A DNA stretch of 64,000 bases from Spirochaetia bacterium (GCA_963675665.1 OY776510.1:768001-832000); one strand, 5' to 3'; positions 36,068-52,731 are shown, counted from the first letter of the stretch. The notes: generated by a model from the letters alone, not told the origin. Made by a program: numbers and translations.

Positions 36068-37321
36068 TTATTTTTCAAAAAAATAATCCTTAATCAAATC
36101 CGGTTTAAACTCTCGCCCCATATAACAATCGAGAAAAGCCTCCGAATCAATATGTAAATTCCCTTTTAAAACTTCATATAATTCACTTTCACTAAAAGTT
36201 GTTATTATGTTTTTATCAGATCCATCAAAAGGTGGTACAATTTTATAATTAAATAAATCATATCCCTTTTTACTACCATGAGGCTCAAAAACAATATAAT
36301 TCTTTCCAACAAGAAGGGTATTAAGAATTACAGTACTTGCAGGACCTATAACAATAGACGAATTATTTAACGATGTTTCTAAATTTAAATTATCAAAAGA
36401 ATAAAATTTTGTATCAATAACTCTCTTATACCATGCAATACTTTCTGAAGGATGCAATCTTAATATCGCACTTTTAACGCCTGCTTTTTTCAATGCGTTC
36501 TTTACAAGTTCTGTATATAAATAACTATTAATACAATGATCAATATTGTTTATTGTACTATCACTTATTGCTCCTGCAGCTACTTTCGTGACGACAAGAA
36601 CATTGCCTGATTCCATTTTAGCATTTTGTTTCTCTCGATTAATCTTAATCCTATCATTTATGGCAGGATGTCCAGTAACAATTATTTTATCACATGCAAC
36701 TCCTGCATCAATATAATTCTTTTTGATACTTTCACCCCAGACAAATAATTTATCCGCTCTATTGTCATCAATATTGTTATATCTTGCAGGGAGGCCATGT
36801 AAAAAAACTGCATTTGGTCTTTCTAATTCTGTAAAAATTTCAATGGATTTTTTCTCAAAAAAAGGAAGATCATATGGAACCAATAAAGCTTTAACATTTT
36901 GTTTATAATAACTATATAAAAAATCATAAATTCGATTTTTTAATAAAAGAAAATCTTCCGAAAAAAAATAATTAATATTATTATTGTTTAAGAAGCTTTT
37001 TAACTTTCTTAAGGATAGATATTTATCATCATACTGCCACGACTCCCAAATCGGTCTTTTAATTATTACACCCTCAAAACAATTAATATTTGATAAATCA
37101 ATATAGCTGTTTGATTGAATAACTTTACTTGTATATATAGGAACTTTTTTAGGATATAATGATAATGTATTTTTTATTACTAATTTTATATGATTCTTAA
37201 TTTTATTATGTATCGGGCGCTTAAAATAATCTCCCGATTGTATAAATTTTCTCGATATTTCATAAGAAAAATCCTTTAACTCTGTTCTCTCTGTATATAG
37301 AGCCTTTAAAGATTCGTTCAT
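36068..37321 (-). CDS. Putative GT-B nonulosonate transferase
   Basis: LHG, VWGE, TGHP, RLHPSE, STV motifs; directly downstream of pseI (ATGA overlap). Confidence 0.45.
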   Translation of the reverse strand: MNESLKALYTERTELKDFSYEISRKFIQSGDYFKRPIHNKIKNHIKLVIKNTLSLYPKKVPIYTSKVIQSNSYIDLSNINCFEGVIIKRPIWESWQYDDKYLSLRKLKSFLNNNNINYFFSEDFLLLKNRIYDFLYSYYKQNVKALLVPYDLPFFEKKSIEIFTELERPNAVFLHGLPARYNNIDDNRADKLFVWGESIKKNYIDAGVACDKIIVTGHPAINDRIKINREKQNAKMESGNVLVVTKVAAGAISDSTINNIDHCINSYLYTELVKNALKKAGVKSAILRLHPSESIAWYKRVIDTKFYSFDNLNLETSLNNSSIVIGPASTVILNTLLVGKNYIVFEPHGSKKGYDLFNYKIVPPFDGSDKNIITTFSESELYEVLKGNLHIDSEAFLDCYMGREFKPDLIKDYFFEK

Positions 37322-38340
37322 TTTATATTTTTCCATTGTAAAGGACTTCCTTTTTTTAAATCACATTCAGCAGTTTTCCCTAAAATCCTTAACATGTGTT
37401 TTGGGTTTAAACCATCACCAGGTCTAATTGATCTAATATTTGTTTCGTTAAATTTATCTCCCTTTTTTATATCCTCTGTTACGAAAAGAGATCTTCTAAA
37501 CTGTCGATTTTTCTTCTTTTCATTATCCAAGCTATAAGATACACTTCCTATTGCCTTTTCTACATTACGAATAGATTCAACCATCTGCTTAAACTGTACA
37601 GGCTCAATAGAAAATTCGGAATCAACACCTCCATTATTACGATCAAGTATAAAATGTTTTTCTATCACCTGGGCACCCATTGCAACAGCTGCAATAGCAA
37701 CATCATTTACTAAAGAATGGTCAGATAATCCTACTTTTACACCAAAAGTCTCCATCATATTTACCATAGTCTTCAGATTAGCATCCGCTATTGGCGCAGG
37801 GTAACTTGAAGTACATTTTAATAATGTTATATCGTTATTGCCAACTTTTCTGCAAGCTTCGACAGCTTTTTGTATTTCACCTATTGTTGCTATTCCTGTC
37901 GACATAATCATAGGCTTTCCCTTCAAGGCTGTATATTCAATAAGAGGTATATCTCCAATCTCAAAAGATGCAATTTTATATGCAGGCATATCCAGTGATT
38001 CTAAAAAATCTACTGCTGTCTTATCGAAAGGCGAGGAAAAACAAATAAGATCTATACTTTCTGCATATTCCTTCAAAGATTCATGCCATTCCCATGGGGT
38101 ATAAGCTTCACTATATAATTTATATAAAGTAGTTCCATCCCACAAAGTGCCATGCTTAATTTGAAAGTATTCATTATCACAGTCAAGAGTTATAGTATCG
38201 GCAGTATATGTCTGGAGTTTTACAGCATCTGCACCAGCTTCTTTCATTGCACATATAGTTTCAATTGCTAATTTATAATCATGTGCATGGTTTGCAGAAA
38301 GTTCTGCAATTATTAACACAGAATTATTTTCTTTTTTCAT
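37318..38340 (-). CDS. pseI: Pseudaminic acid synthase
   Basis: IIAELSANH, KLQTYTADTIT, YKIASFE, LKCTSSYP, GLSDH, IEKHF, C-terminal SAF domain; AGGAGA RBS before ATG 38340. Confidence 0.9.
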   Translation of the reverse strand: MKKENNSVLIIAELSANHAHDYKLAIETICAMKEAGADAVKLQTYTADTITLDCDNEYFQIKHGTLWDGTTLYKLYSEAYTPWEWHESLKEYAESIDLICFSSPFDKTAVDFLESLDMPAYKIASFEIGDIPLIEYTALKGKPMIMSTGIATIGEIQKAVEACRKVGNNDITLLKCTSSYPAPIADANLKTMVNMMETFGVKVGLSDHSLVNDVAIAAVAMGAQVIEKHFILDRNNGGVDSEFSIEPVQFKQMVESIRNVEKAIGSVSYSLDNEKKKNRQFRRSLFVTEDIKKGDKFNETNIRSIRPGDGLNPKHMLRILGKTAECDLKKGSPLQWKNIK

Positions 38341-38350: not shown

Positions 38351-40639
38351 TTATGAGCGTTTATCATAATACCAAACCTGCATAAATCCATCTTTATCAA
38401 CAATTGTACTTTCAGGAAGTTCCCAGTATGGGTTCCATTTAATTCTATCATCATATCGATAAGAAGTTTGTAACAAGATTCGACTATCTTCTCTTTTAAT
38501 TATACTTTTTTCATATAATGTTATTTTACCGATATCAGTCATTAACGCTAATTGAGGTTTTGCTCTTCCAGAAAGATATCCTGATGTTGTTAATTGTTTT
38601 ACTAATGATAAACTTTCATCGATTGTTGTTCTAAAATGCTCAGAACCTTTAATTGGAACACAGTGAAAAAGATAATGATTCTCTATTCCGAGATACCTCA
38701 TTTCATCACATACGTTTATTAATTCCTCTACAGAATTATTCACATCCTTTAATAAAACAGTCTGATTATAAATATTCACATATTCTCTAATTTTTAAAAA
38801 TGCTTCTTTTACCTCAGGAAAGAGTTCAACTGAATGATTTATTTGCGTTGCCATTTCAATCTGAAATGAATATTTTCTTTTAAAAAGGGAAAGAATGTTA
38901 TCATTAATTGCTGAGGGTTGATGAATTGGTATTCTGCTTGCGATTCTAACAATTTTTATATTATGAGGATGTCGTTCCAATTCATCTAAAAATCGAATTA
39001 TTTTCGAGGGTACAAGCAGAGGATCTCCTCCTGTAATTAATAATTCCCTAACATCTTCTAATTCTGGTAATTTGCTGATACTTCTAGCAATTCTGTTTAA
39101 ATCATCTTGCGATAACGCGAAAGGCGAATAGAATTGCCGAAGGCAATGTCTACAATTTGCCAGACATTGAAGCATTGGTTCAATAATCAATACTCTTCGA
39201 TATAATCGCTCCAATCCTAATAATCTTTTATTCTCAAACTCAAATAAGGAAGAGGCTTCATAATGTTTCAACATTGATTTTTCATTTCTTCTCTGATCTG
39301 GCGTTGTATTAATATAAAATTGATTTTTTAAAACTCTTTGTACTGTCGAATCAGAATTATTTTCTGCGTGCTTTAATTTATTTTGTACAAAAGGACTTAC
39401 CCTAAAACCAGATGTACCCTTTGCCCTCTTTTTAGAGTCTACTACAACCGTAACAATATCTTCAACTGTATTTATAAAATCTACAGCTTCATTCAAATCA
39501 TTAAATTCAAATGCCACAACACCTAAAGTATTGTCTCCTATAGAAAACTCATTTACTTCATCACCTACTTCAGCAATTTGATGTTCAAAAACAATCTTAT
39601 CAATATATTCAGATTTTACTTCATATCCGTTAAACAAACCTTCTTGGTAACTATTTAAAATGTATGACACTATTGGCTTTCGCGAATATTCTTTTTTAAC
39701 TAAATAACATTCTCCAAAGGCTGAATAAATCGAAGCTTCCGTCATATCAAATCCGGACGATAACTGTATCATATTAGGTACAAATATTCCTCCGTTACGT
39801 AGAGCAATGTCAATAATATAAATATCTTCACCAACTTTAAAGCCATCAAAATTGATACATCCACTATTTAAATTTAATTCAGTAATAATACTTTGAAACT
39901 GTTCATCCAAGTTTCTTTCTACTTCTTCATTAAAGACACCAGGAAAAATTTCGCCTACTGGCACATTAAATTTTGAATTTTTTTTAAAATAATTATGGCC
40001 ATAATAAGAAAATGCAATTTTACCATTTTGAAAGAATACATCTCCATCTAATTCCAACATTGTTTTATTTAATTTTTTCTCAATTATAATCTCTTTTGAC
40101 ATTGAATTATCAATTGCATATTTTAATGCTTTATTTAATTTATCTTGACAATCAATAATAGATTGACCTCTTGATCCTCCAGAATCAACAGGTTTAATAA
40201 TAATCTCTCCAGTCTTTTCCAAAAGATCATAAATATCTTTGACATTGGAATCTTCATTATAAACAATAAATTCTGGATAAGGTAATCCTATCCTTTTCTG
40301 CATATTTCTAAATTTGCCTTTGTCTTGTAATACAATAGCAGCTTCAATCGGATTTCCTGGTAACTGTAGCTTTTCAGCAACAAATGATACTGTTTCTACA
40401 GCCGCATTCGCTGCATATGTCATTATTGCATCAATCTTGTATTCGATAGCTGCCTCTAAAACTTTCTGCTTTTCTATAGTAGAAAGTTTTAAAGATAAAT
40501 CACTATAGCAATGTCCGATCTCTGTTAAATCTTTACTTACCGTTATAACTATGCAACCCAACTCTTTTGCTTTTTTTATTGCAGGTAACTGATAAGGAGA
40601 TGCTCCTAAAAACATTAATCTTTTAAATTTAAACTTCAC
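38351..40639 (-). CDS. Fusion of ATP-grasp ligase (N-term) and KamA-like radical-SAM aminomutase (C-term)
   Basis: LGAS..Q.PAI, DK..FR, IKPVDSGGSRG; then CLANCRHCLR, ITGGDPL, NH..E, NQTVLL.DVN, GK. Confidence 0.85.
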   Translation of the reverse strand: MKFKFKRLMFLGASPYQLPAIKKAKELGCIVITVSKDLTEIGHCYSDLSLKLSTIEKQKVLEAAIEYKIDAIMTYAANAAVETVSFVAEKLQLPGNPIEAAIVLQDKGKFRNMQKRIGLPYPEFIVYNEDSNVKDIYDLLEKTGEIIIKPVDSGGSRGQSIIDCQDKLNKALKYAIDNSMSKEIIIEKKLNKTMLELDGDVFFQNGKIAFSYYGHNYFKKNSKFNVPVGEIFPGVFNEEVERNLDEQFQSIITELNLNSGCINFDGFKVGEDIYIIDIALRNGGIFVPNMIQLSSGFDMTEASIYSAFGECYLVKKEYSRKPIVSYILNSYQEGLFNGYEVKSEYIDKIVFEHQIAEVGDEVNEFSIGDNTLGVVAFEFNDLNEAVDFINTVEDIVTVVVDSKKRAKGTSGFRVSPFVQNKLKHAENNSDSTVQRVLKNQFYINTTPDQRRNEKSMLKHYEASSLFEFENKRLLGLERLYRRVLIIEPMLQCLANCRHCLRQFYSPFALSQDDLNRIARSISKLPELEDVRELLITGGDPLLVPSKIIRFLDELERHPHNIKIVRIASRIPIHQPSAINDNILSLFKRKYSFQIEMATQINHSVELFPEVKEAFLKIREYVNIYNQTVLLKDVNNSVEELINVCDEMRYLGIENHYLFHCVPIKGSEHFRTTIDESLSLVKQLTTSGYLSGRAKPQLALMTDIGKITLYEKSIIKREDSRILLQTSYRYDDRIKWNPYWELPESTIVDKDGFMQVWYYDKRS

Positions 40640-40651
40640 GTATTACTCCTT

Positions 40652-41407
40652 TTATTCTATTATCTTTTTTAATAAAATAATATCTTTTTCGAAATCATCT
40701 AGATTCTCCATACTCTTTTTTCTTGTTTCAAGACTAATCTTTTTTTCTATATTGATAATTTTAAATATTTTTCTAAAATTTAAATTACCTTCTCCAATAT
40801 TTAAATGATCGTCATAAGGAGTCCTGGTATCGGTATCTGATAAATGGTACATCTCTGGAGCTAAAATGTTAAATTCTTTTATATAATTAAAATAATCTTT
40901 ATCATAAAAAATTGCGGCTGCTATCGCATGACCAATATCAAGAACAAATCCTACATTTGCTTCTTCAATAATAAATTTTATCTCATTTGGTTTTGCACCA
41001 ATAAAACTTAAATCCTCTCCAAAAACAATCGCCGGAACATTCTCTATTAATACTCGTTCGTCATTAAATAATAACAATTGTCGAACAGTTTCATCAATAT
41101 CACCATTGGCTTCACTATGTAAAATTATGTAGCGAGCATTTAGATTATCTGTAAAGAATCTAATCTCTTTTAGTATTGAACTATTATAATTTTCAAGATC
41201 TCTATCTGATAGATTAAAACCATATTCCAAATGAGTACCATGTACAATAATGGGGATATTAGTCATTTTCCATAAATTAATAGTCTCAAGACTATTTGGT
41301 ACATAATAAATTTCTAGAAAATTAAAAATTTTTTTTTCATATAAATTTATTATACAATTATAATAATTTATATTTGTAGACCATATTTTTAATCCAAATT
41401 CAGACAT
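40652..41407 (-). CDS. Xylose-isomerase-like/AP-endonuclease-2 TIM-barrel metalloenzyme
   Basis: H..H, IEN.P, LDIGH, HLSD, D.HL.IGEG, LET. Confidence 0.75.
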   Translation of the reverse strand: MSEFGLKIWSTNINYYNCIINLYEKKIFNFLEIYYVPNSLETINLWKMTNIPIIVHGTHLEYGFNLSDRDLENYNSSILKEIRFFTDNLNARYIILHSEANGDIDETVRQLLLFNDERVLIENVPAIVFGEDLSFIGAKPNEIKFIIEEANVGFVLDIGHAIAAAIFYDKDYFNYIKEFNILAPEMYHLSDTDTRTPYDDHLNIGEGNLNFRKIFKIINIEKKISLETRKKSMENLDDFEKDIILLKKIIE

Positions 41408-42072
41408 CTAAATAAAACCTCAGCTATAGCCCAATCCTCTAGCGTATCAATATCTCGGACTTTTGTTTCTGGCATTATATATCCATATGCTTTATCTGAT
41501 AATACTGTATCATTTTCTATAAAAGCTGAAATATTAAAAAAATAAAATAGTCCTGCATCGTGATACATTTCTTCTAGATCTTGAGATCTTAAATTGGCAT
41601 TTCTTTCATCATAAAATTTCACAATATTGTTCTTCAATTGAAATGCGCGCTGAATCGGAAAAGGATACTTTACGACAGGAATTACACTGTCATATTCTTC
41701 CAACTTCAAATATGAATCATTTAATATGACAGAATTGATAAATGGTGCTGTAGGTAAAAGACAACAGCAATATTTAAATTGTCTATTTTCATTATAATAA
41801 TATTTTATGACTTCATGTAGAACATCTTCTATAGTAGCAGAATCGTTACTATTAATTTTATTTCTTAGATAGGGAACACTTGCTCCATAACTTTTAGCAA
41901 TCTTAGAAATTTCTAACGTGTCTGTTGAAACCATAACCTCATCAAAAATATTCGAATTTAAAGCTGCTTCAATAGAATATGAAATAATTGGTCTTCCACA
42001 GAATTCCTTTATGTTTTTTTTAGGAATTCGTTTACTCCCACCTCTTGCAGGAATTATACAAATATTACTCAT
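41389..42072 (-). CDS. pseF: CMP-pseudaminic acid synthetase (copy 2)
   Basis: IPARGGSKRIPKKN, MVSTD, PTAPF, RSQDLE..YHDAG, DIDT.EDW. Confidence 0.85.
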   Translation of the reverse strand: MSNICIIPARGGSKRIPKKNIKEFCGRPIISYSIEAALNSNIFDEVMVSTDTLEISKIAKSYGASVPYLRNKINSNDSATIEDVLHEVIKYYYNENRQFKYCCCLLPTAPFINSVILNDSYLKLEEYDSVIPVVKYPFPIQRAFQLKNNIVKFYDERNANLRSQDLEEMYHDAGLFYFFNISAFIENDTVLSDKAYGYIMPETKVRDIDTLEDWAIAEVLFRCLNLD

Positions 42073-42081: not shown

Positions 42082-42190
42082 CTATTTAGAATTAATTATA
42101 GTGCTTTTATTGTTTTCGCTTATTTTATCTATGTCCCTTTCTGATAGCTCTGAGAACAAAGACAATGATAAAGCTTGTTTTTTAGCCTCT
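42082..42190 (-). pseudogene. Relic C-terminus of a PseC/DegT aminotransferase
   Basis: Minus frame reads EAKKQALSLSLFSELSERDIDKIS, similar to PseC end YEATLSLPLYPDL; immediately upstream of pseF copy 2. Confidence 0.55.
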
Positions 42191-42979
42191 AAGATATTTT
42201 TTAAAATCTTCTACAGAGATAGCATTATAGATAGGACTTTTATATCCTTCTGGAATAACATTAATAATTTGTACTCCGTTATTTTCACTTATTTCTTTCA
42301 ATATATTATGTTCATTTTCTGGTTGTTTTATTTCTAAATTTAATACTCTTTTCCTAAATTCTTCTGACTGATAAGGCTCATAAAAATGAAACCACTGATA
42401 TGGTTGAAGAGTATATCCTGCACCAATTAAAAATATTTTATCAAATCCCATATATATAGCAAGGCAGAGAAGGAAATATACTGTTCCTTTCATAAAAGGG
42501 CTTCTTTTACAAAAATCTATTTTTGTTTTTACTGTTATTGGATCTCTACTAGAAGCAAAGAAATACTTCTTAACATTTTTAAGTTCTTTATCATTTCTAA
42601 TATAAAAATAATTTGTATGATTTAATAAAAGTATAGTATCGTTAGAGCAGGCGTGTAATTTTTTTATCATAGTTTTTGAATGCTCTGAAAGATTTGTATA
42701 TCTCATCGTTTTATGAGCATTTTCAATGGAAGAATAGAACAAGGGCTTCATATTCTTAATGTCTTTATGTCGATAAAAATGATTACAAATAAAAGTCTTT
42801 TTATCTTTAAGTAAACTAAGATCGATATCATTTACAACGGGACCTGTTAAAAAAATATAACATTCCTGGTTAATAAATTTATTTTTTAAATTTATATTAT
42901 CTTTTAAAAGAACATAAATAAAAGGAAATGATACAAAATAATATAAATGCTTAATTATTGAAATAACAACTGATCTCAT
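42182..42979 (-). CDS. DUF115/Maf-like putative nonulosonate transferase
   Basis: CYIF.TGP...IDLSLLK....F.CN, LAIYMGF.KI.LIG, HFY. Confidence 0.65.
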   Translation of the reverse strand: MRSVVISIIKHLYYFVSFPFIYVLLKDNINLKNKFINQECYIFLTGPVVNDIDLSLLKDKKTFICNHFYRHKDIKNMKPLFYSSIENAHKTMRYTNLSEHSKTMIKKLHACSNDTILLLNHTNYFYIRNDKELKNVKKYFFASSRDPITVKTKIDFCKRSPFMKGTVYFLLCLAIYMGFDKIFLIGAGYTLQPYQWFHFYEPYQSEEFRKRVLNLEIKQPENEHNILKEISENNGVQIINVIPEGYKSPIYNAISVEDFKKYLRG

Positions 42980-42995: not shown

Positions 42996-43199
42996 TTAAT
43001 CTGTAGATATTGAAAACAATTCATTGTCGCAATTATTTGGTATGGTATCTGCTATATAGTTTTGTCTTTTAACTGAATCCTCACTACTGTCTATAATAGC
43101 TCTAATACATTCTTTCGCTATATTTATATCTTGATTATAATTAGCTTTAATTCCCGTTATTATAAATTTTTTATCCATCTTCTGTTTCCTTAAATTCAA
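42996..43199 (-). pseudogene. Degenerate N-terminal fragment of a second pseI
   Basis: FIITGIKANYNQD..IAKE.I......DSVKRQNYIADTI..NCDNELF aligns with intact PseI IIAELSANH...DAVKLQTYTADTITLDCDNEYF. Confidence 0.75.
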
Positions 43200-43233: not shown

Positions 43234-43650
43234 TTAAATAGGTGGCAAAACAGTAGCATCACCTTCTATAACTATATCGCCGTTAGATTTTCTACAAGTT
43301 GTTTTTAATTTAACAATATTTTTTTCCTGAAATATTTCAATCACTTCAACTTCTGCCCTGATTGTATCACCAATAAAAACAGGTGCTGTAAATTTCAAAT
43401 TCTGTTCATAATATAATGTTCCAATACCTGGTAGTTTTGTTCCTATCACAGTTGAGATTAAACTAGCTGTTAATAATCCATGAGCAATACGGTTTTTAAA
43501 TCTTGATTCCTTACCAATCTCATCGTTAATATGGATCGGATTAAAATCTCCTGATATTCCCGAAAATAAACATATATCTGTTTCCGTTATTGTTTTTCCG
43601 AAAGAGGCTTTATCTCCAATTCTTAATTCATTTATTTTTTTTCCTGTCAT
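43234..43650 (-). CDS. MaoC-family (R)-enoyl-CoA hydratase
   Basis: F..ISGDFNPIH, IAHGLL, LPG.G, F.APVFIGD. Confidence 0.9.
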   Translation of the reverse strand: MTGKKINELRIGDKASFGKTITETDICLFSGISGDFNPIHINDEIGKESRFKNRIAHGLLTASLISTVIGTKLPGIGTLYYEQNLKFTAPVFIGDTIRAEVEVIEIFQEKNIVKLKTTCRKSNGDIVIEGDATVLPPI

Positions 43651-43652: not shown

Positions 43653-44192
43653 TTATATAATTCCTATTTTAATATATTCCAGTTTCTTCTTCTTTTCTTC
43701 CCACTCAGCTTTTAGAATTCCCATTCTTACAACATCGAAATATTCATTATTTTTCTTGATTTGTTGCCTAAGAGTCCCTTCGACTGATGCTCCAAAATGT
43801 TCATGGATTTTTACAACTTTCTCATTAAATGATAAAACTTCGCAACACACTTTATTCATATTTAATTTATCAAAACAAAAATCATAATTATTGCATTCTA
43901 TTATCTTACCAACTCCTTTCCCTTGATAACCTCTCTCTGCAATATAATATGCCCAAAAACATGTTTCATTTTTTCTGTCTATAAAATTAACAGAATATAA
44001 CCCAATTGGATTTTTATCATACTCAATTATCCGATATATATTATTATCATCTTTCATACGTGAAAACCATTTCTTTTGATTTTCTAACGTTATATCAGGA
44101 TCAGTATACATATATTTTGTAACCTCTGGCAACATTCGCCAATTCATAATCATTTCTAAATCTGTATCAAAAATTTTTCGGAGTTTAACCAT
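43653..44192 (-). CDS. pseH: PseH-like N-acyltransferase (GNAT)
   Basis: WR..PEVTKYMYT, W.YY, CEVL.FN..V...H..FG; within pse cluster. Confidence 0.8.
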   Translation of the reverse strand: MVKLRKIFDTDLEMIMNWRMLPEVTKYMYTDPDITLENQKKWFSRMKDDNNIYRIIEYDKNPIGLYSVNFIDRKNETCFWAYYIAERGYQGKGVGKIIECNNYDFCFDKLNMNKVCCEVLSFNEKVVKIHEHFGASVEGTLRQQIKKNNEYFDVVRMGILKAEWEEKKKKLEYIKIGII

Positions 44193-44625
44193 TCTCCAAT
44201 CTCCTTAAATATTTATAATCTAATTTAAAATATAATTATTTGAATTCACTATCCTTTTTGGTCTCAATACTTAATAATTTCTTTCCTGAAATTTTCAAAC
44301 GTTTTTAAAATATTGGGAATTTTCATTATCACAATGTAAAGTACTGCTCAGTTCGAAATTGTAAATATCATCGGAGAATTGATATATTACTAGTAATAAA
44401 TAATTAAATTTACTCAGCAATTCATCCTTATCATACTCCGAAATATTTGCGGTATATATTATTTATCCAATATCAAAATAAAACCACAAGAGATTTTATC
44501 TAAATTTTTTCAGATTTTCGGAAATATCATATGAATTAAAAAAATCCCGATTGACTAATTCAGCAGTTGACTCTATATTATTGTTATTCTTTGGCTATAT
44601 CTTTAATCTAAATAAAATAAGAAAT

Positions 44626-45315
44626 TTAACTATTGAAATTACTCTGAAATTTCAGTTCTGCAAGAGTCCAATCTACATCTTTATCAATATCCTGAACCTC
44701 TAAAGAATCGTATTTAATATACGTTGTTTTGGGAACAATAAGTTTTTTATAATGTAATAACGATACAGTTCTAATAAAATAAAATTGACCTGCATCATGA
44801 TAGCAAGGTTCAAGATCTTGGGATCGTATTGTATAATTCTCCGGCCACTTCATTTGTATGAAACAGCCTTCTGAAATAAATGCTTTCTGAATAGGATACT
44901 CAAATTCAACAATAGGAATTATCGCATTAGCTGAAATTTTCATTAATTTATAATAAGCTTTATTTAATTTATCAGGAGTAATAAATGGTGCTGTCGGTAA
45001 AACACATGAAATAATATCGTATTCTATTCCTCTTAACATATATGAATTTATAACTTCAATCAGAACCTCCGCTAATCCTGCTGTATCATTCGAATTACAA
45101 TGACTTCTTAAAAAAGGAATTTTTGCACCGTATTTTCTTGAAATTCTTGCAATTTCTTCATCATCCGTTGAAACCATAATCTCATCAAAAATATTTGATC
45201 TTATTGCAGCTTCAATTGAATATGCTATTATTGGTTTTCCTAAAAAATCTTTTATATTCTTTCTGGGAATTCTTTTACTACCGCCTCGAGCAGGAATTAC
45301 ACAAAGTTTTTTCAT
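44626..45315 (-). CDS. pseF: CMP-pseudaminic acid synthetase (copy 1)
   Basis: IPARGGSKRIPRKNIK, VSTDD, RSQDLE..YHDAGQFY. Confidence 0.88.
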   Translation of the reverse strand: MKKLCVIPARGGSKRIPRKNIKDFLGKPIIAYSIEAAIRSNIFDEIMVSTDDEEIARISRKYGAKIPFLRSHCNSNDTAGLAEVLIEVINSYMLRGIEYDIISCVLPTAPFITPDKLNKAYYKLMKISANAIIPIVEFEYPIQKAFISEGCFIQMKWPENYTIRSQDLEPCYHDAGQFYFIRTVSLLHYKKLIVPKTTYIKYDSLEVQDIDKDVDWTLAELKFQSNFNS

Positions 45316-46470
45316 TTATACCCTACATATCGAAATGATTTTGTCGATAACTAAATCCTGTTCTTTTTTAATCAAATCAGGATATAACGGTAAACTTAGT
45401 GTCGCTTCATAATAATCTCTTGCATTTGGAGTATCATCAATTGTTGTCTTATAATTTTTCATATAATAAGGCTGAGAATTTACAGGGATATAATGAACTT
45501 GAGTTCCTATTCCTTCTTCAATTAGTTTAGTCATAAACTCAGAACGAGTAATATTCAATTCCTTAAAATTTATTTGAACAACATAAAGATGAAAACAGCT
45601 ATCTAGGAAATTCTCCTCATAGGGACAAATTATTGAACTAATAGAGGAAAATGCATTATTATAACGTCTTACTATTTCACGCCTTTTCTTTTTAAAAGAA
45701 TCAAGTTTATGTAATTGATTAATCCCGAGTGCTGCCTGCAACTCAGTCATCCGATAGTTACGACCAAGAATCTTCATTTCATAATACCAAGGCCCTGGAT
45801 TTTTTTCTAATAGTTCTGGTTTCTTTGTTATTCCATGATTTCTTAAAAGCAATAGTTGTTCATATAACATTTCATCATTTGTAGTAATAGCTCCACCTTC
45901 TGCTGTCGTTATTGTTTTCACAGGATGAAATGAGAAAACCGTCATGTCTGAATATTTACAACTTCCAACTCGATCACCGTCTTTATAGTTTGAACCAATT
46001 GCGTGCGAAGCATCCTCAATAATTCGTAAATTATTACCTTCTGTAATTTTTTTAAGGATTGGCATATTACAAGGTTGTCCTGCAAAATGAACAGGTATTA
46101 GCAACCTTGTTTTTATACTTATTTTGGATTTAACTGATTCTGGAGAAATATTATATGTTTTTTTATCAATATCTGCAAAAACAGGAACAATATCATTATA
46201 AATCATAGAGTTCGATGTCGCAACAAACGTATTTGGTGTTGTGATCCCTTCACAACCTTTTTCCAACATTAAAGCAGCAACAGAAATATCCAGAGCTGCT
46301 GTTCCATTTGAAACAACCACACAATATTTTGATCCGCAATACTGAGCAATTTTTTTTTCAAATTCTTCCACAACCGGCCCTTGTGTTAAATATGCTGCCT
46401 TTAAAATTTCTGTTACAGATTCAATATCTTGTTTATCAATTGACTGTTTTCCATATGAAATCATATTCAA
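45316..46470 (-). CDS. pseC: UDP-4-keto-6-deoxy-AltNAc aminotransferase
   Basis: ISYGKQSI, LTQGP, FSFHPVK.ITT.EGG, RNHGI, PWYYEM. Confidence 0.92.
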   Translation of the reverse strand: MNMISYGKQSIDKQDIESVTEILKAAYLTQGPVVEEFEKKIAQYCGSKYCVVVSNGTAALDISVAALMLEKGCEGITTPNTFVATSNSMIYNDIVPVFADIDKKTYNISPESVKSKISIKTRLLIPVHFAGQPCNMPILKKITEGNNLRIIEDASHAIGSNYKDGDRVGSCKYSDMTVFSFHPVKTITTAEGGAITTNDEMLYEQLLLLRNHGITKKPELLEKNPGPWYYEMKILGRNYRMTELQAALGINQLHKLDSFKKKRREIVRRYNNAFSSISSIICPYEENFLDSCFHLYVVQINFKELNITRSEFMTKLIEEGIGTQVHYIPVNSQPYYMKNYKTTIDDTPNARDYYEATLSLPLYPDLIKKEQDLVIDKIISICRV

Positions 46471-47492
46471 ACCTTAACCATTCTTTCCAATTCATTATCT
46501 ATCCAGACTTTTAACTCTTCTTGTGTCATCCACTTTTTATTATTACTGCTAGTATAAGAAAATCCTTCCGGAACTCTTTGTCCGTCTTTAATCCTATTTG
46601 CATCCTCTGACCACTTATGAATTGATGGTAATATTTTATAATATCCTTCATACTCATAAGTAAACATTGAATCTTCAGTACTAATCATTATTTCATGTAA
46701 CTTTTCACCAGGACGAATTCCAACATACTGGATTTCAGCTTCTGGAGCTATTGTCTTGGCTAAATCAATTACTTTCATTGAAGGAATTTTCTTTACATAG
46801 ATTTCTCCACCTTCGGCATCTTTAAAAGCTTTCCAGACCAGTTCCACACCTTGATCCAATGTAATCATAAATCTTGTCATTCTTTTATCCGTTACCGGTA
46901 AAATTCCTGTGTTTTTTAATTTCATAAAAAATGGTATTACCGATCCGCGACTTCCCATTACATTACCATAACGAACAACAGAAAATCTTGTACCGTGTTC
47001 ACCTGAATATGAATTTCCAGCAACAAAAAGTTTATCTGAAGCTAATTTCGTTGCTCCATATAAGTTAATCGGATTGCATGCCTTATCAGTACTTAATGCT
47101 ACAACTCTCTTAATATTTTTATCTATACATGCGTCTATTAAATTCATTGCACCAGTTATATTTGTTTTTATACACTCAAAAGGATTATATTCTGCTGTTG
47201 GTACTATTTTAGTTGCGGCGGCATGCACTACATAATCAACACCATCTAATGCCCGATATAATCTATCTTTATCACGTATATCACCAATAAAAAATCTTAA
47301 TCGTTTATCATTATTAAATCGTGCATTCATATTCCATTGTTTCATTTCATCTCTAGAATAAATAATAATCTTCTTTGGATTATATCTCTCCAATGTCATT
47401 TCAATAAATTTATGCCCGAAAGACCCTGTCCCTCCAGTAATTAGAATAGTTGAATTTGTTAACATACTGTTCTCCATAAACATCAGTTTCAT
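46467..47492 (-). CDS. pseB: UDP-GlcNAc 4,6-dehydratase (inverting)
   Basis: TGGTGSFG, HAAATKIVPTAEYNPFE, STDKA.NPINLYGATK, GIRPGEKLHE; true start may be a few codons downstream. Confidence 0.93.
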   Translation of the reverse strand: MKLMFMENSMLTNSTILITGGTGSFGHKFIEMTLERYNPKKIIIYSRDEMKQWNMNARFNNDKRLRFFIGDIRDKDRLYRALDGVDYVVHAAATKIVPTAEYNPFECIKTNITGAMNLIDACIDKNIKRVVALSTDKACNPINLYGATKLASDKLFVAGNSYSGEHGTRFSVVRYGNVMGSRGSVIPFFMKLKNTGILPVTDKRMTRFMITLDQGVELVWKAFKDAEGGEIYVKKIPSMKVIDLAKTIAPEAEIQYVGIRPGEKLHEIMISTEDSMFTYEYEGYYKILPSIHKWSEDANRIKDGQRVPEGFSYTSSNNKKWMTQEELKVWIDNELERMVKV

Positions 47493-47870: not shown

Positions 47871-48000
47871 ATTCGCCATTCTTTAACCCTATTTTGTTAT
47901 AACTCCATTTATCTGAAGTGTCCAGAGAATGCTTCAATTCCTTAATTCTGATAACTAATATTGATATATAGAATCCAGTTCAAATAATGCCAATATTTAA

Positions 48001-48170
48001 AAAGAAACTCCTAAGGTCTCTTACGAGCACAACAAGATTACTCTCACTCAAATATACAATATGAAGCTTTTTGGATTACAAATAAATATTTCTTTGACAA
48101 CCGCCTGACCAATTGTCCCGGCACCACCGGACAATAAAGGAGGAGTTATTTACTTCATCATCCAAAAAAT
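48001..48170 (-). pseudogene. Degraded N-terminus of a CapD-like UDP-GlcNAc 4,6-dehydratase
   Basis: Frameshifted pieces SSFIV / GGAGTIGQAVVKEIF..NPK / SESNLVVLVRDLRS. Confidence 0.6.
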
Positions 48171-48192
48171 AAAATTATTTTTAATGTCCGCA

Positions 48193-49266
48193 TTAAGGAG
48201 TGGAGATCTTCTTCCAATTATCTTCAAAGATCCCCGTGTTATCCATATCCCCAGAAAGTTTTTCTGCGCCCGGACCATATCCATAAACCGGCACATCAAC
48301 TTCTGTATGATAATCCGTCCTCCAGGCAACTGTCGGAAGAGTTCCTTCTCCGTTGTTATTTATAACATCCAGTCCGCCTGTTTCATGATCGGCAGTTACA
48401 ATAAGCAAAATATCGTCCCGGGACCCAATCCAGTCAAGAACATCCTGTGCTGCATCAGAAAAAGCCTTTACCTCGAGCAGCATACGTTGTAAATCATTGG
48501 AATGACACGCATGATCTATCCGTCCGCCCTCAATCATCAGAAAAAACCCGTTATTGTTTTCATCAAGCAGATCGAGTGCTTTTAACAACATCTCTGAAAG
48601 CGTCGGATACTCACCCAAACCGTCATAAACATAAGGCATATGACCGTCGCCGAAAAGACCGCAAACCAATTCGCCCGACAGCGCATTCATTTCATCTTCG
48701 TTGGCGACGCTTTTGTAACCGGAAGTCTGCAACCATGCCATATCGATTCCGGCCGATGATCCGCCTCCGCCGAATACAACATTCGGTTTTGTCACAGTAA
48801 AAATTTCATCCGCAATCTGTGAATAATTAATCCGGCTGACATTATGCGAAGTAAAAGCTGCAGGGGTAGCATGAGAAACCATGGCTGTTGTCACAACACC
48901 CACGCTCTTGCCTTCTGATTTATACTGCTCAAGCACTGTTTCAAGATTACTGCCGTCGCCGGGAATCGCTTTGCTGATTACTCCGTTATTTACCTTCTGC
49001 CCGGTTGCCATGGCAGTTGCGGCAGCAGCGGAGTCGGTTATGCTGCTGTTTGCCGAGTATGTTGAAACAGAACCCTTTACAGGCAAAGATTCAAAACTCA
49101 TTTTGCCCTCTTCGCCGTAATAGTAAAAACTTGCAGCTTTAACCTGCTCATAGCCCATTCCGTCGCCAATCATCAGAATGACAGAAACAGGTGGATCAAA
49201 CCAGCTGCATGAAAAAAGAAACAGGCAGAGTGCCGATATGAATAAAAGCTTTTTAAAAGCTTTCAT
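48193..49266 (-). CDS. phoA: Alkaline phosphatase lipoprotein
   Basis: Lipobox LFSC; MIGDGMG, TDSAAAATA, HATPA, EGGRIDHACH, TADHETGG. Confidence 0.9.
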   Translation of the reverse strand: MKAFKKLLFISALCLFLFSCSWFDPPVSVILMIGDGMGYEQVKAASFYYYGEEGKMSFESLPVKGSVSTYSANSSITDSAAAATAMATGQKVNNGVISKAIPGDGSNLETVLEQYKSEGKSVGVVTTAMVSHATPAAFTSHNVSRINYSQIADEIFTVTKPNVVFGGGGSSAGIDMAWLQTSGYKSVANEDEMNALSGELVCGLFGDGHMPYVYDGLGEYPTLSEMLLKALDLLDENNNGFFLMIEGGRIDHACHSNDLQRMLLEVKAFSDAAQDVLDWIGSRDDILLIVTADHETGGLDVINNNGEGTLPTVAWRTDYHTEVDVPVYGYGPGAEKLSGDMDNTGIFEDNWKKISTP

Positions 49267-49278
49267 AGTCAGTTTATT

Positions 49279-49414
49279 CCCCTAAGAGGGGGCAGCGGAA
49301 CGACGCAAGGCGGCCCCCGGCGGAGGGGACGAAGCCGGATACAGGGCTGCCGGTTGGTAATTCACAGGAACTGTGTATTACCATGCGGCTGGAGCGCGGG
49401 GGAGACTTCCCCCG
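49279..49414. repeat. GC-rich cluster of hairpins (REP-like element or structured leader) between metF and phoA
   Basis: CGGGGGA-GACT-TCCCCCG; GCCG..TGGTAAT.CACAG-GAA-CTGTG.ATTACCA..CGGC; CCCC-TAAGA-GGGG. Confidence 0.5.
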
Positions 49415-49415
49415 T

Positions 49416-50276
49416 CTACAACTCCCCGGCTTCTTTAATTCCCAGAAACCTGAAGATTTCCAGGGTGGCGCGAGATTTATTGAGCGTATAAAAATGTATG
49501 CCGTCGACGTTGTTTTCAAGCAGGTCGAGGCTCTGGTGCGTTGCCCAGTGAATACCGACACGCTCGGCGGCCTCATCCGTTGTTGTGCGGTTCATCGCCT
49601 TAATGAGTCCGGCCGGAATTCGTGCGCCGAGAGACAACTCAGCTATCCGTTCCATATTGCTCTTTGAAACAACCGGCATGATTCCCGCCTTGACAGGCAC
49701 ATTGATGCCCGCAATCTCGCAGCGCTCGCGGAAGTCGTAAAAATCGCGGTTGTCGAAGAAGAGCTGGGTGCATATGTAATCGGCGCCGCAGTCTACCTTC
49801 CTTTTAAGGTTATCGAGTTCAACAAGCCGGTTGGGCGTTGCCGGATGGCCTTCCGGAAAACCCGCCACTCCCACATTCATATGCGGGTAATTTTTCTTTA
49901 TAAACTCAACAAGTTCAGCCGCATATGTAAACCCGTTTGCAGGCGGCATGAAGTCAATCCCGCCGTTGGGAGGATCGCCGCGCAGGGCAAGTATATCGTG
50001 AATACCGAGCCGGTCATATTCATCAAGCAGGGCCTTTATCTCGGTCCGATCCATTCCCACGCATGTAAGATGACTTACTATCTTGAGAGGGGTTTCTTTC
50101 TTCAACCTCAGGATCGTGTCCTTGGTCAAATCGCGGGAAGAGCCCCCGGCGCCGAAGGTCATGCTTATATAGGAAGGGTTCAGCGGCATAAAGTCGGTTT
50201 TAACGCGCTCTATCAGATTATCCGAACCTTTCTGTGTTTTGGGAGGAAAGAATTCAAAACTTATTGTCGATTTCAT
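49416..50276 (-). CDS. metF: 5,10-methylenetetrahydrofolate reductase
   Basis: SFEFFPPK, S.T.GAGG, HLTC, LALRGDPP, PEGHP, TQLFFD, HFYTLN. Confidence 0.95.
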   Translation of the reverse strand: MKSTISFEFFPPKTQKGSDNLIERVKTDFMPLNPSYISMTFGAGGSSRDLTKDTILRLKKETPLKIVSHLTCVGMDRTEIKALLDEYDRLGIHDILALRGDPPNGGIDFMPPANGFTYAAELVEFIKKNYPHMNVGVAGFPEGHPATPNRLVELDNLKRKVDCGADYICTQLFFDNRDFYDFRERCEIAGINVPVKAGIMPVVSKSNMERIAELSLGARIPAGLIKAMNRTTTDEAAERVGIHWATHQSLDLLENNVDGIHFYTLNKSRATLEIFRFLGIKEAGEL

Positions 50277-50333
50277 AAAAATAACTTCATTTCACATTGA
50301 TTACGAATAAAAATATGATTCAGCACTTGCTGA

Positions 50334-50393
50334 GCCCAACGGCAATGCAAAACGGCTTCGCTTCGCTGCAGATGTTTTGCTTCACCGTTGGGC
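50334..50393. repeat. 60-bp imperfect palindrome with attC-like ends
   Basis: GCCCAAC (RYYYAAC)-GGCAA-TGCAAAAC...GTTTTGC-TTCACC-GTTGGGC (GTTRRRY). Confidence 0.5.
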
Positions 50394-50447
50394 CCCGCAG
50401 CTGCGTCATACGCTTGTAATCAATGTAAAAGCTGTTCTCTCCTGTTT

Positions 50448-50816
50448 TTATTTAATAGGAAGAATTTTAACTCTGGACCGATTCTCATCAACCGTTATAA
50501 TTGCACCGGTTTTCAATTCATGATGGAAATCTTTTAATACCTTAAGAATCTCATTTATAAATAATTCTGTATACATATTTTGAGTTCTAACCTGAAGAAC
50601 ACTTGGTTTATTTGCTTTTGTCAATGCAAGCATAATTCCAAAATCCAAATCATGTGTAAAAACAATAAAATCATTATCTATTGCATAATCAAAGATCTCT
50701 GAATCCAGAGCATCAAATCTGCCTACAGAAGACCAGTGGGTAGCTTCATATCCATTCATCTCTAAAATTTTCGCCAATTCAGGAGATAAATTCATGTCAA
50801 GAAGGATTTTTAACAT
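50448..50816 (-). CDS. DUF5615 PIN-like toxin
   Basis: ILLDMNLSP, D.EI..YA, VFTHDLDFG. Confidence 0.88.
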   Translation of the reverse strand: MLKILLDMNLSPELAKILEMNGYEATHWSSVGRFDALDSEIFDYAIDNDFIVFTHDLDFGIMLALTKANKPSVLQVRTQNMYTELFINEILKVLKDFHHELKTGAIITVDENRSRVKILPIK

Positions 50817-51043
50817 TAAATTGCTAATAAAACCTCAATCTCTTCAGAACGCCATGCTGCATATTCTAGAGCAGCTTTGATATCAGCCTCTTCAAGATAA
50901 GGATACTTTTCAATAATCTCTTTTTGAGAAAAACCGTTGGCAACCAAGCCAACAACAGTTCCGGCCGTTACCCGCAGATCCCGAATACAGGGTCTCCCCC
51001 CCATTCGTTGCGGATTAAATGTTATTCTTTCAATATTTTTCAT
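50816..51043 (-). CDS. DUF433 antitoxin
   Basis: RIT.NP..MGGRPCIR..RV, YP.LE..DI.AALEYAA; stop overlaps toxin start. Confidence 0.9.
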   Translation of the reverse strand: MKNIERITFNPQRMGGRPCIRDLRVTAGTVVGLVANGFSQKEIIEKYPYLEEADIKAALEYAAWRSEEIEVLLAI

Positions 51044-51088
51044 AACTATAATATACAACCATTATTGCTCTTTTCATAGTTGCTTCTG

Positions 51089-51132
51089 AATCAAACAAAC
51101 ACATCCTGCAGAAACAGGCCGCCGTCCTTTTT
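51089..51132. repeat. Direct repeat copy A (duplicate of the MarR gene 3' end)
   Basis: AATCAAACAAACACATCCTGCAGAAACAGGcCGCCGTC.TT, matching 51897-51940. Confidence 0.9.
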
Positions 51133-51536
51133 TAATCTGTAAAATCAACCTTTATATTCAATTCTTTACTTATCCGGCTTATTAAATCTTCAGTAAATTC
51201 AAGAATACTTTTAATTTCCTGCTTTTCGGGCAGGATCCTCTCTGAAACAGGATATGCTTCTGAAATATGATAGTCTGTTGCAATCGATAAATATCTTGAC
51301 TCGGTTTCATTAAGAATTATCTCTGTTTCAACATAATCAAATAGCTCAAATAAATCATGTGTTTTCAGTATTTTTTTATTTCTGTAAGCTGAAAAAGATT
51401 TCAGCGCAATCTCAATTGAATAGTGTAATTCAACTGCAATTACATCGGTATAATGATTTGCATTAAATAAAAGTCTGGCGGAACTAAAATGATGCCAAGC
51501 CTTTACAAGCCATTCTCTAGCTGCGGCTTCGTTCAT
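51132..51536 (-). CDS. HEPN domain protein
   Basis: EW..KA....SA..L, H..IE..LK, KTHDL..L; paired with MNT. Confidence 0.85.
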   Translation of the reverse strand: MNEAAAREWLVKAWHHFSSARLLFNANHYTDVIAVELHYSIEIALKSFSAYRNKKILKTHDLFELFDYVETEIILNETESRYLSIATDYHISEAYPVSERILPEKQEIKSILEFTEDLISRISKELNIKVDFTD

Positions 51537-51852
51537 ATATTATTCTGCCTTTTTGCACAATATCAACTTTGTAAAAATAATCTTTCCGTTTATTTGAATC
51601 GGTAAACGGACCGGATAAAATATCAAAACCAATTTTATATTTAGAAACCAACTGCCTTAGTTTCAGTCTGGCGTCAATCCGATAGTCTCTTAGCCTTTTT
51701 GCGTCCAAACCATCCTTGAAAATAAACAGATCAATATCGCTGTCTTCATCCGGCTTTCCATAAGCATAACTTCCGAATAATACTATTTTATCAGGTTCAA
51801 GAGATTTCAGATTCTCAATAATTTCAGGTTTAATTTTCTCAATATCAATCAT
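51517..51852 (-). CDS. Minimal nucleotidyltransferase (MNT)
   Basis: IVLFGSYAYG.PDEDSDIDL; start re-assigned to MIDIEK. Confidence 0.88.
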   Translation of the reverse strand: MIDIEKIKPEIIENLKSLEPDKIVLFGSYAYGKPDEDSDIDLFIFKDGLDAKRLRDYRIDARLKLRQLVSKYKIGFDILSGPFTDSNKRKDYFYKVDIVQKGRIIYERSRS

Positions 51853-51896
51853 ATCTATTGTTATTATATCTCTCAAACTATGCAATTTAAAGCAGA

Positions 51897-51940
51897 AATC
51901 AAACAAACACATCCTGCAGAAACAGGACGCCGTCTTTCTT
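51897..51940. repeat. Direct repeat copy B (native MarR gene 3' end)
   Basis: AATCAAACAAACACATCCTGCAGAAACAGGaCGCCGTC.TT; encodes KDGVLFLQDVFV*. Confidence 0.9.
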
Positions 51941-52405: not shown

Positions 52406-52611
52406 GGATTAGATTTTCAAAAATGCACAGCAGGGCCGGTCCGTCCAAATCATATTTTTTTGATACGGATTGCTTCAGTAAGGCATATCATATTGCCTCA
52501 GTCTGTCCGGATAATTCAGTTTGTGTTTCTCCGGACATCAGCCCAAAACCTGCACAGTCGCCGCCGAAACTGGCTGAAAGGCATAAGGATTGGTATAACC
52601 ATCAACTTTTG

Positions 52612-52628
52612 TGTTCGTTGCGTGAACA
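52612..52628. promoter_or_regulatory. Palindromic operator candidate 1, TGTTC-N7-GAACA
   Basis: TGTTCgttgcgtGAACA directly downstream of the -10 box. Confidence 0.55.
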
Positions 52629-52656: not shown

Positions 52657-52702
52657 GCGGATTAGATAAAATAGTGGCAAATTTATACTGTTTTTGCATG
52701 TT

Positions 52703-52723: not shown

Positions 52724-52731
52724 CGAGAGCG

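Follow-up and report, generated by a model that had tools for sequence, protein, structure and literature searches.

The characterized enzymes of the KamA family are, to our knowledge, all 2,3-aminomutases, and lysine, glutamate and arginine are the only substrates that we know to be established for them. In lysine 2,3-aminomutase (LAM), we take Asp293 and Asp330 to bind the epsilon-ammonium group of the substrate, Arg134 to bind its alpha-carboxylate, Lys337 to be the pyridoxal 5'-phosphate (PLP) lysine and Cys268 to be a zinc ligand, whilst a K/N pair at the two pocket positions presumably marks glutamate 2,3-aminomutase. Losing the Asp330 equivalent is reportedly key to accepting alanine in the alanine 2,3-aminomutases engineered from KamA that appear in the patent literature. 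Here we analysed a 64,000-nucleotide (nt) stretch of DNA from a Spirochaetia bacterium (GCA_963675665.1 OY776510.1:768001-832000; hereafter the window), in which one open reading frame (ORF) of 762 amino acids (aa) at 38351..40639, on the minus strand and with a GTG start, joins an ATP-grasp domain to a KamA-type radical S-adenosylmethionine (SAM)/PLP domain inside a pseudaminic acid (Pse) cluster.

Our preferred reading, to which we assign a probability of about 0.5, is that the fusion is a two-step make-and-attach enzyme that makes a beta-amino acid and then ligates it to the C4 amine of the PseC product. In the first step the KamA-type domain, using a [4Fe-4S] cluster, SAM and PLP, would take a free L-amino acid and shift its alpha-amino group to C3; in the second the ATP-grasp domain would convert the carboxylate of the resulting beta-amino acid into an acyl phosphate for coupling to an amine. 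We infer the first step from family membership and conserved residues, and the second from fold and gene context. The predicted acceptor is the C4 amino group of UDP-4-amino-4,6-dideoxy-beta-L-AltNAc, the PseC product, such that the fusion would take over from PseH, adding a beta-aminoacyl group in place of acetyl; UDP removal, PseI and PseF would follow, leading to a 7-N-(beta-aminoacyl)-pseudaminic acid on the cell surface. An earlier note on this DNA had proposed a make-and-ligate enzyme acting on the nonulosonate or its precursor. That logic is strongly backed by the comparative genomics of the carboxylate activators and N-acyltransferases described below, and the acceptor can now be narrowed, with the precursor favoured and the finished nonulosonate less likely.

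The fusion gene, its parts and the residues discussed below are placed as follows:
38351..40639, minus strand: fusion gene, an ATP-grasp ligase domain, linker and KamA-family radical-SAM/PLP domain (domain matches, homologues and AlphaFold2 (AF2) model)
40646..40651, minus strand: Shine-Dalgarno sequence AAGGAG, 6 nt before the GTG (40639-40637), read from the sequence
39425..40639, minus strand: ATP-grasp carboxylate-amine ligase domain, aa 1-405 (phmmer and Foldseek)
39224..39424, minus strand: inter-domain region, aa 406-472 (AF2 pLDDT profile)
38354..39223, minus strand: KamA-type radical-SAM/PLP core, aa 473-762 (2a5h_A match, clade profile and domain model)
39137..39166, minus strand: C492/C496/C499 [4Fe-4S]/SAM motif and R501 at the Arg134 position (2a5h alignment)
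38657..38659, minus strand: Val661 codon at the LAM Asp293 position (V in 57 of 57 rows)
38540..38542, minus strand: Met700 codon at the LAM Asp330 position (M in 56 and L in one of 57 rows)
38525..38527, minus strand: Lys705 codon at the PLP Lys337 position (two 2a5h alignments; invariant)

The fusion is packed with its flanking genes as a single operon. Upstream, 12 nt separate it from the preceding gene, whose TAA stop lies at 40652-40654, and downstream the start of pseI is probably the ATG at 38340, preceded by AAAGGAG and only 11 nt past the fusion stop; a longer pseI ORF would overlap the fusion by 104 nt, but the match to the PseI model begins only at aa 46. A homologue search at E <= 1e-3 returned 88 proteins, of which 55 besides the window's own span the full fusion (753-999 aa, 41-66% identity). 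These come from several phyla, with Oceanispirochaeta as the best named homologue and Saganbacteria, Hydrogenedentota, Proteobacteria and Omnitrophota as further named sources; the longest (P0013, 999 aa) has a formyltransferase-like domain ahead of the ATP-grasp/KamA unit. An assembly or frameshift artefact, which had been the earlier note's own concern, is ruled out by these 55 full-length fusions and by a confident AF2 model of the whole protein built on 55 homologues (pLDDT 88.1, pTM 0.78), and the single 762-aa ORF that the note had described is thereby upheld, on the minus strand. Between the domains, the model has low-confidence segments at aa 404-412 and 445-453 plus two helices of the KamA-like N-terminus, and H459 and E477-R478-x-Y480, in this stretch and at the KamA start, are invariant in the fusion family.

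The KamA half is a divergent branch of the KamA family. Residues 473-722 align with residues 106-354 of the LAM of Clostridium subterminale (2a5h_A; E 1.3e-24), a profile of 42 clade members matches 2a5h at E 6.6e-42, and a separate model of aa 400-762 (pLDDT 89.4, pTM 0.89) has 2a5h as its best Foldseek match (E 1e-19, TMq 0.60, 338 columns), with the next radical-SAM fold at 1.6e-6; this half thus has a LAM-like fold. No LAM_C domain (PF12544) was matched in a Pfam scan of the fusion. The cluster cysteines C492-x3-C496-x2-C499 (CLANCRHCLR) align with C125, C129 and C132 of 2a5h and are invariant in the fusion family and in a second alignment, as are R501 at the Arg134 position and K705 at the Lys337 position, both placed by two alignments to 2a5h. 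TGGDPL (536-541), YNQTVLL (624-630) and an IGK motif holding K705 are also present, and all of the catalytic signatures that the earlier note had listed (CxxxCxxC, the CRHCLR arginine, GGDPL, NQTVLL and a lysine at the PLP position) were found and aligned to 2a5h.

At the pocket, two independent alignments to 2A5H agree that Asp293 is replaced by Val661 (HCV) and Asp330 by Met700 (ALMTD), so that the substitutions first proposed by manual alignment hold, and the full set of correspondences to C. subterminale KamA reads D293=V661, D330=M700, K337=K705 and R134=R501. The row counts given above come from a MAFFT alignment of 56 fusions, including the window's own, and one split form (P0058); controls in the same alignment behave differently from the fusions, with P0064 (source name lysine 2,3-aminomutase) and P0078 carrying D and D and another control group carrying K at the first position. 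Close by, R692 (Tyr322 in LAM) is invariant and K694 near-invariant in the fusion family, two residues are deleted relative to LAM just before the PLP lysine, and Ser636 sits at the zinc-ligand position of Cys268. Asp702, two residues past Met700, is an unlikely displaced stand-in for Asp330 in the fused subclade, since the position varies there between D, S, A and G. Because the exchange of Asp293 and Asp330 for Val and Met is conserved across the whole clade, we reject lysine as the substrate on the pocket and consider it very unlikely; and because both residues that bind the epsilon-ammonium group are replaced, the substrate side chain should be neutral and probably aliphatic (alanine, 2-aminobutyrate, methionine, leucine or similar).

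Rather than being one oddity, the fusion belongs to a large, widespread and uncharacterized group of enzymes. A scan of species-representative genomes confirmed 559 relatives, ranging from Streptomyces to Pelagibacteraceae and Nitrosopumilus, most of which stand alone, at some 360-420 aa, and show the same signature (HYLFH-[C/A/G/P]-[V/I]-P, SGRxKP and [M/L]-[T/S]-D-[I/V]-GK). Clade members that stand alone are typically around 365 aa long. When 1.84 billion cluster representatives were searched exhaustively, 2076 of them matched as KamA-family members at E <= 1e-3, and 34 passed E <= 1e-30, with a score gap between clade members (>200 bits) and the remainder, which begins near 125 bits. Pocket pairs were counted in 134 KamA-family sequences (65 D/D, 16 [V/I]/[M/L], 6 S/A, 5 K/N, 4 M/V and 38 other), and in a FastTree phylogeny of 155 sequences and 364 columns the [V/I][M/L] sequences formed one clade (support 100) of 77 leaves, 75 of which carry the signature; the two exceptions are L041 (C/M) and P0104 (A/Q), the latter also without the PLP lysine. 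The ATP-grasp fusions form one subclade within this tree. The Arg501 position is kept by every clade member in the census except the degenerate P0104, an argument for the mutase working on the free acid ahead of the ligation that consumes the carboxylate. Elsewhere in the family we observed further pocket classes (S/A, H/A, M/V, A/L and H/N; P0129, P0135, P0141, P0142, P0147 and others), some of them in proteins near 820 aa in length that matched over two stretches, and the three amino acids known so far probably make up a small part of the KamA family's substrate range.

The genomic partners of the clade suggest what becomes of its product. We kept 78 loci of the 559, set aside 22 (13 distant at <225 bits, one without a match and eight in which a simple ORF caller had lost the gene) and analysed the remaining 56 together with the window, giving 57 clade loci in which neighbours within 8 kb were clustered and one representative annotated per partner cluster. 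A carboxylate activator was found in 40 of the 57: an ATP-grasp enzyme of the L-amino-acid ligase type in 10 (8 fused), a PGM1-type ATP-grasp in 2, a PaaK-like ligase in 22 and an AMP-binding enzyme in 7, with both of the last two in L006. LbH (LpxD/NeuD-type) N-acyltransferases occurred in 19 loci and AAC(3)-like ones in 4, alongside DegT in 18, NeuB in 18, any sugar marker in 29 and PIG-L-type de-N-acetylases in 6. The arrangements outside the fused genes were:
Commonest order: PaaK-like acyl-CoA ligase, LpxD/NeuD-type LbH N-acyltransferase, KamA-like
Alphaproteobacterial (L055, L057, L058): KamA-like, AAC(3)-like acyltransferase, AMP-binding enzyme, small acyl carrier protein (ACP)-like ORF, DUF4910 protein
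Streptomyces (L014, 8382-12996): KamA-like, PGM1-type ATP-grasp peptide ligase, major facilitator superfamily (MFS) transporter
Paractinoplanes (L063): KamA-like adjoining a non-ribosomal peptide synthetase (NRPS) C-A module and a phosphopantetheinyl transferase
Dongia-type (L025, L033, L035, L052): stand-alone KamA-like among housekeeping genes (valS, pcm, tolC-like, dsbB), no ligase

The commonest order is usually accompanied by NeuB, a DegT aminotransferase, a PseB-like dehydratase, a CMP-transferase and a hydrolysing 2-epimerase, and sometimes by a PIG-L de-N-acetylase. In P0091 (651 aa) an LpxD-like LbH N-acyltransferase is itself fused to the KamA-like domain, whilst L048 holds the alphaproteobacterial partner genes on the other side of KamA, and L027 (9896-13629) shares the downstream gene clusters of L014. 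Small ORFs lie upstream in L014 and L027, which are candidate small-peptide natural-product loci using the same building block. In L007, KamA and then a separate ATP-grasp gene follow each other in the reverse of the fusion order and belong to a different subclade. These independent couplings are the main support for the proposal that the clade supplies an acyl building block that would then be activated and transferred to an amine. The neighbourhood analysis that the earlier note had suggested thus supports its ligation logic, with activators in most of the clade loci and N-acyltransferases common.

Across its whole length, the other half of the fusion has the three-domain ATP-grasp fold, as found by Foldseek and phmmer. 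Residues 4-398 match the ATP-grasp protein 4dim_A end to end (phmmer E 1.2e-14), with a weaker phmmer match to the L-amino-acid ligase 3vot (E 3.9e-5), and the best Foldseek matches, which also include PurK, span TMt values of 0.71-0.84 (4dim 0.81, 3vot 0.81-0.84, PurT 0.80, RizA 0.77 and BacD 0.71). K149, E187, E196, D198, D200, N263, D265, R281, G283 and G284 are invariant in the fusion family, as positions of the family alignment rather than of a solved active site. The 14 stand-alone relatives of the domain carry generic names throughout, and no close named relative was found among them.

The acceptor is suggested by the other loci that hold fused or split genes, in which 60 of the 91 plus-strand ORFs were scanned at E <= 1e-25 and 17 more at E <= 1e-6:
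L001: pseB, pseC, cytidylyltransferase fragments, TIM barrel, fusion, pseI
L002: pseG, fusion, pseI
L032: pseB, pseC, Pse-associated methylase, cytidylyltransferase, methyltransferase, WbqC-like, pseG, fusion, pseI
L005: NeuB, fusion, WbuX/HisH/WbuZ acetamidino genes
L003 (non-nonulosonate): ArnC/PgfS-like GT2, fusion
L004 (non-nonulosonate): RmlA, WecF-like, fusion
L039 (non-nonulosonate): RmlA, fusion, two ArnC-like GT2, dTDP-4-amino-4,6-dideoxygalactose-type transaminase
L007 (non-nonulosonate): dTDP-4-amino-4,6-dideoxygalactose-type transaminase, KamA, ATP-grasp, ArnC-like GT2

All eight fused genes examined (seven loci and the window) lie inside sugar-nucleotide clusters. In L001, L002 and L032 the fusion sits at the pseH position, between pseC or pseG and pseI; PseH was not detected among the ORFs scanned in L001 or L032, and PseG was found in L002, L032 and L036. 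L039 has both a dTDP-4-amino-4,6-dideoxyhexose transaminase and RmlA, L007 the transaminase and L004 RmlA. The feature common to both types of locus, where detected, is a predicted nucleotide-linked 4-amino-4,6-dideoxyhexose from a DegT-family transaminase, and it is for this reason that we place the ligation at the C4 amine, later N7 of Pse. The PseC product is a more likely acceptor than the finished nonulosonate, both because the fusion appears to take the pseH slot in other Pse loci and because fused genes also occur in non-nonulosonate loci with a DegT/WecE 4-aminotransferase.

That the fusion of the window lies in a Pse cluster, as the earlier note had stated, is confirmed by matches over the NCBIfam equivalog cutoffs for PseB, PseC, PseH, PseI and both copies of PseF:
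37318..38340, minus strand: pseI, pseudaminic acid synthase (TIGR03586, 506.1 bits against a cutoff of 340)
40652..41407, minus strand: xylose-isomerase/endonuclease-IV-like TIM barrel, directly upstream of the fusion (PF01261, E 1.8e-12)
41389..42072, minus strand: pseF copy 2, CMP-pseudaminic acid synthetase (TIGR03584, 283.2 bits against 205.7)
42996..43199, minus strand: relic of a second pseI, 67 aa from its N-terminus (BLASTP 45% over 53 aa, E 7e-13)
43234-43650, minus strand: MaoC-like (R)-hydratase (PF01575, 2.5e-26)
43653-44192, minus strand: pseH N-acetyltransferase (TIGR03585, 115.9 bits against 93.1)
44626-45315, minus strand: pseF copy 1 (258.5 bits)
45316-46470, minus strand: pseC (468.5 bits)
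46467-47492, minus strand: pseB (550 bits)

The right-hand part of this cluster has an L001-like order (pseF2, TIM barrel, fusion, pseI), and the stretch from pseC to pseF2 contains pseF1, a 434-nt gap, pseH, the MaoC hydratase, the pseI relic and a 265-aa ORF. The cluster looks like an L001-like cassette (pseB, pseC, pseF, TIM barrel, fusion, pseI) into which a fragment of a conventional cassette (pseF, pseH, maoC and a truncated pseI) was inserted, and such a mosaic would explain the two pseF genes and the presence of pseH beside the fusion; the organism may make two Pse variants. The gap between pseF1 and pseH (44193-44625) has no ORF of >=50 aa on the coding strand, which is unusual in a tight operon, and could be what remains of a decayed gene or the scar of a recombination event. 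The 67-aa ORF at 42996-43199 was also considered as a carrier protein, which its identity as a pseI relic rejects, and the 265-aa ORF at 42182-42979 found no support as PseG or as the remainder of the broken pseI, its leads being insignificant (WaaZ E 4e-4, MptE-like E 0.23).

No TIGR03590 (PseG) match was detected in the window ORFs scanned, four unassigned ones at E<=0.1 included. The TIM-barrel gene adjoins the fusion upstream both here and in L001 (7034-7822), the only two members of its neighbour cluster (32), and both loci, which lack a detectable pseG, have the TIM barrel where L002 and L032 have pseG. This protein may stand in for the UDP-sugar hydrolase PseG as a non-orthologous replacement. 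It matches the phosphodiesterase CbiR weakly (E 0.0036), and a relationship to the Pse 8-epimerization genes EpaA/EpaB was rejected, since the families differ: the part of PMC12053666 that describes them gives a cytidylyltransferase/aldo-keto reductase and a short-chain dehydrogenase/reductase. A bolder and more tentative extension, which we regard as possible but doubtful, is that the [V/I][M/L] clade comprises natural 2,3-aminomutases for a small neutral amino acid (at its boldest, alanine to beta-alanine) that would act as a portable supply module, with fusion and TIM barrel replacing PseH and PseG. The product of the module would then be delivered in four ways or more: by an ATP-grasp ligase, whether fused or encoded separately; by an LbH transferase together with a PaaK-like CoA ligase; by an AAC(3)-like transferase together with ACP and an AMP-binding enzyme; and by peptide ligation of the PGM1 or NRPS type. 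The window and L001 would hold a six-gene route (pseB, pseC, pseF, TIM barrel, fusion, pseI) to 7-N-(beta-aminoacyl)-pseudaminic acid, which, if true, would be a sugar not yet described.

Several observations weigh against the make-and-attach reading. The KamA half scores below the TIGR00238 family cutoff (138.9 bits, E 1.8e-40, against 199.2) and misses the equivalog cutoffs for lysine (TIGR03820, 113.2 against 525.4), glutamate (TIGR04368, 131.2 against 650), arginine (TIGR04468, 122 against 600) and EpmB (TIGR03821, 123 against 369); its Pfam Radical_SAM match also falls under the gathering score, as do those of the ATP-grasp half (ATPgrasp_ST 23.8 against 31.4; Dala_Dala_lig_C 19.2 against 24). 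The D702 position is mostly D in stand-alone clade members, where it could be a displaced stand-in for Asp330, and the invariant Arg692 with the near-invariant Lys694 could bind an acidic group, contradicting a purely neutral substrate. A bona fide pseH is present in the window, so that step does not depend on the fusion here. No activator was seen in 17 of the 57 clade loci, with partner counts from blastp being lower bounds given one annotated representative per cluster, and the housekeeping context of the Dongia-type alphaproteobacterial loci implies a product that is not sugar-specific and hints that primary metabolism may use it too. We found no characterized clade member, homologue and protein-atlas names being generic, and no report of a beta-aminoacyl nonulosonate in the open literature searched. 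Nor was a paper on the clade found there, wording with '2,3-' lying beyond the search; in three apparent matches the passages concerned were not about this clade, dealing with glutamate-1-semialdehyde aminomutase in Legionella (PMC3694923) and beta-lysine as an osmolyte (PMC11337218) or holding only the author name 'Kamat' (PMC8942020).

The same chemistry could serve another acceptor, namely finished or CMP-activated pseudaminic acid, N5 after de-N-acetylation, or another glycan amine. With pseH retained in the window, N7 could be acetylated as usual, a second pseF lies close to the fusion, and the PIG-L-type de-N-acetylases that accompany the stand-alone module in 6 of 57 loci suggest that some systems re-acylate an amine that was acetylated at first. 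We nevertheless judge this unlikely, as no PIG-L gene was seen in the window, L003, L004, L007 and L039 have no nonulosonate genes but do have a 4-aminotransferase, and pseH was not detected in L001 and L032, where the fusion sits between pseG or pseC and pseI.

The order of the two steps could also be reversed, with the ATP-grasp domain first linking an alpha-amino acid to the sugar, for example via a side-chain carboxylate, and the KamA domain then rearranging the tethered residue, its alpha-amino and alpha-carboxylate groups still free. Arg692 and Lys694, invariant and next to the pocket segment, could accommodate a bulky or charged extension, a fusion favours channelling in either order, and the introduction to PMC8157484 mentions glutamyl-type substituents on nonulosonates. 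Against these stand the hydrophobic Val/Met pair, which is ill-suited to an amide-linked sugar nucleotide; the PaaK-like/LbH systems, for which the natural donor is the CoA thioester of a free acid; and the stand-alone members without ligase or sugar genes, or beside NRPS or PGM1-type ligases, which fit a free amino acid. We therefore hold a tethered substrate to be improbable. Equally hard to credit is an enzyme outside glycan synthesis whose product is a free beta-amino acid or else a small peptide or amide, such as a compatible solute: the closest ATP-grasp folds do include dipeptide-forming L-amino-acid ligases (3vot, RizA and BacD), and the clade does occur in peptide contexts (the Streptomyces PGM1-type ligase with MFS transporter, and NRPS), but the gene is tightly spaced among pse genes, shares the low G+C content of the glycan island, and, like all of its examined fused counterparts, lies in a sugar-nucleotide cluster. 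Least credible is another PLP/radical-SAM reaction, or a lysine or arginine aminomutase with a remodelled pocket, which would fit the scores under every curated KamA-family cutoff, the missing LAM C-terminal domain, Ser636 at the Cys268 zinc position and the deletion before the PLP lysine, but not the retention of cluster cysteines, SAM motifs, PLP lysine and carboxylate arginine, the standing of 2a5h as by far the best fold match, the loss across the clade of both aspartates that bind a basic side chain, or the 2,3-aminomutase activity known to us for the characterized family members.

The wider setting of the window is that of a surface-glycan locus. Its glycan region, about 1-47.5 kb, has 27-38% G+C compared with 42-48% in the housekeeping flank (48000-64000), and looks like a horizontally exchanged surface-polysaccharide island. 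Beyond the Pse genes it holds a CDP-glucose 4,6-dehydratase pathway, RmlA, an NDP-hexose 2,3-dehydratase, many glycosyltransferases and, at 13.9-17.1 kb, a second PseB/FnlA-like set with a 2-epimerase. At 325-6724 on the minus strand, CotH kinase-like, beta-helix, porin O/P-like, lamin-tail-domain, DUF4956 and VTC-domain proteins follow in a row that may be a polyphosphate-related surface module. The island border (50448-53310, minus strand) carries DUF5615, a HEPN and nucleotidyltransferase pair (51132-52065) and a Uma2-family endonuclease, all defence- or toxin-antitoxin-like, and a group II intron reverse transcriptase/maturase ORF (RVT_1 and GIIM) lies between pfkB and aspS at 58472-59827 on the minus strand. 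The AspS of the window has its closest named relatives in metagenome-assembled genomes of Spirochaetales, at 86% identity.

If the make-and-attach reading is true, nature has an aminomutase for a neutral amino acid, which would widen the scope of radical-SAM/PLP chemistry and be of biotechnological interest in producing beta-amino acids. The reading also predicts a new class of N-acyl decoration on pseudaminic and legionaminic acids and on 4-amino-6-deoxyhexoses, installed in an ATP-dependent and CoA-independent manner, and such surface sugars shape phage, immune and lectin recognition. With a family of 559 relatives, a single assay would annotate many genes.

Among known systems, KamA of Clostridium subterminale (2A5H) is the best match of the KamA half in both sequence and fold, sharing CxxxCxxC, GGD, NQ, the PLP lysine and the carboxylate arginine. 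The fusion differs from it in having V for Asp293, M for Asp330, R for Tyr322 and a two-residue deletion, in lacking LAM_C and in being fused to ATP-grasp, and is only about 22-25% identical. Glutamate 2,3-aminomutase, arginine 2,3-aminomutase and EpmB belong to the same family and give similar partial hidden Markov model scores (131, 122 and 123 bits), but the V/M pair of the fusion matches none of them; the glutamate enzyme, the K/N class of which is present in the census, is the precedent for the two pocket positions tracking the substrate. The engineered alanine 2,3-aminomutases are laboratory variants, whereas the V/M clade is naturally without Asp330, a parallel that does not itself point to alanine as the substrate. 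For the ATP-grasp half, the L-amino-acid ligases (BL00235 3VOT, RizA 4WD3 and BacD 3VMM), PurT (1KJ9) and 4DIM have the whole-domain fold in common with the fusion (TMt 0.71-0.84), although identity is only 14-20%. In the L-amino-acid ligases and PurT an acyl phosphate is made and then attacked by an amine, and the same chemistry is predicted for the fusion, with an amino sugar as the predicted acceptor rather than the amino acid used by the L-amino-acid ligases. PseH, and N-acetyltransferases of the PglD/LegH type, would share their target amine with the fusion, yet fold and chemistry are unrelated: where PseH transfers acetyl from acetyl-CoA, the fusion would ligate a free acid at the expense of ATP, and the window carries both.

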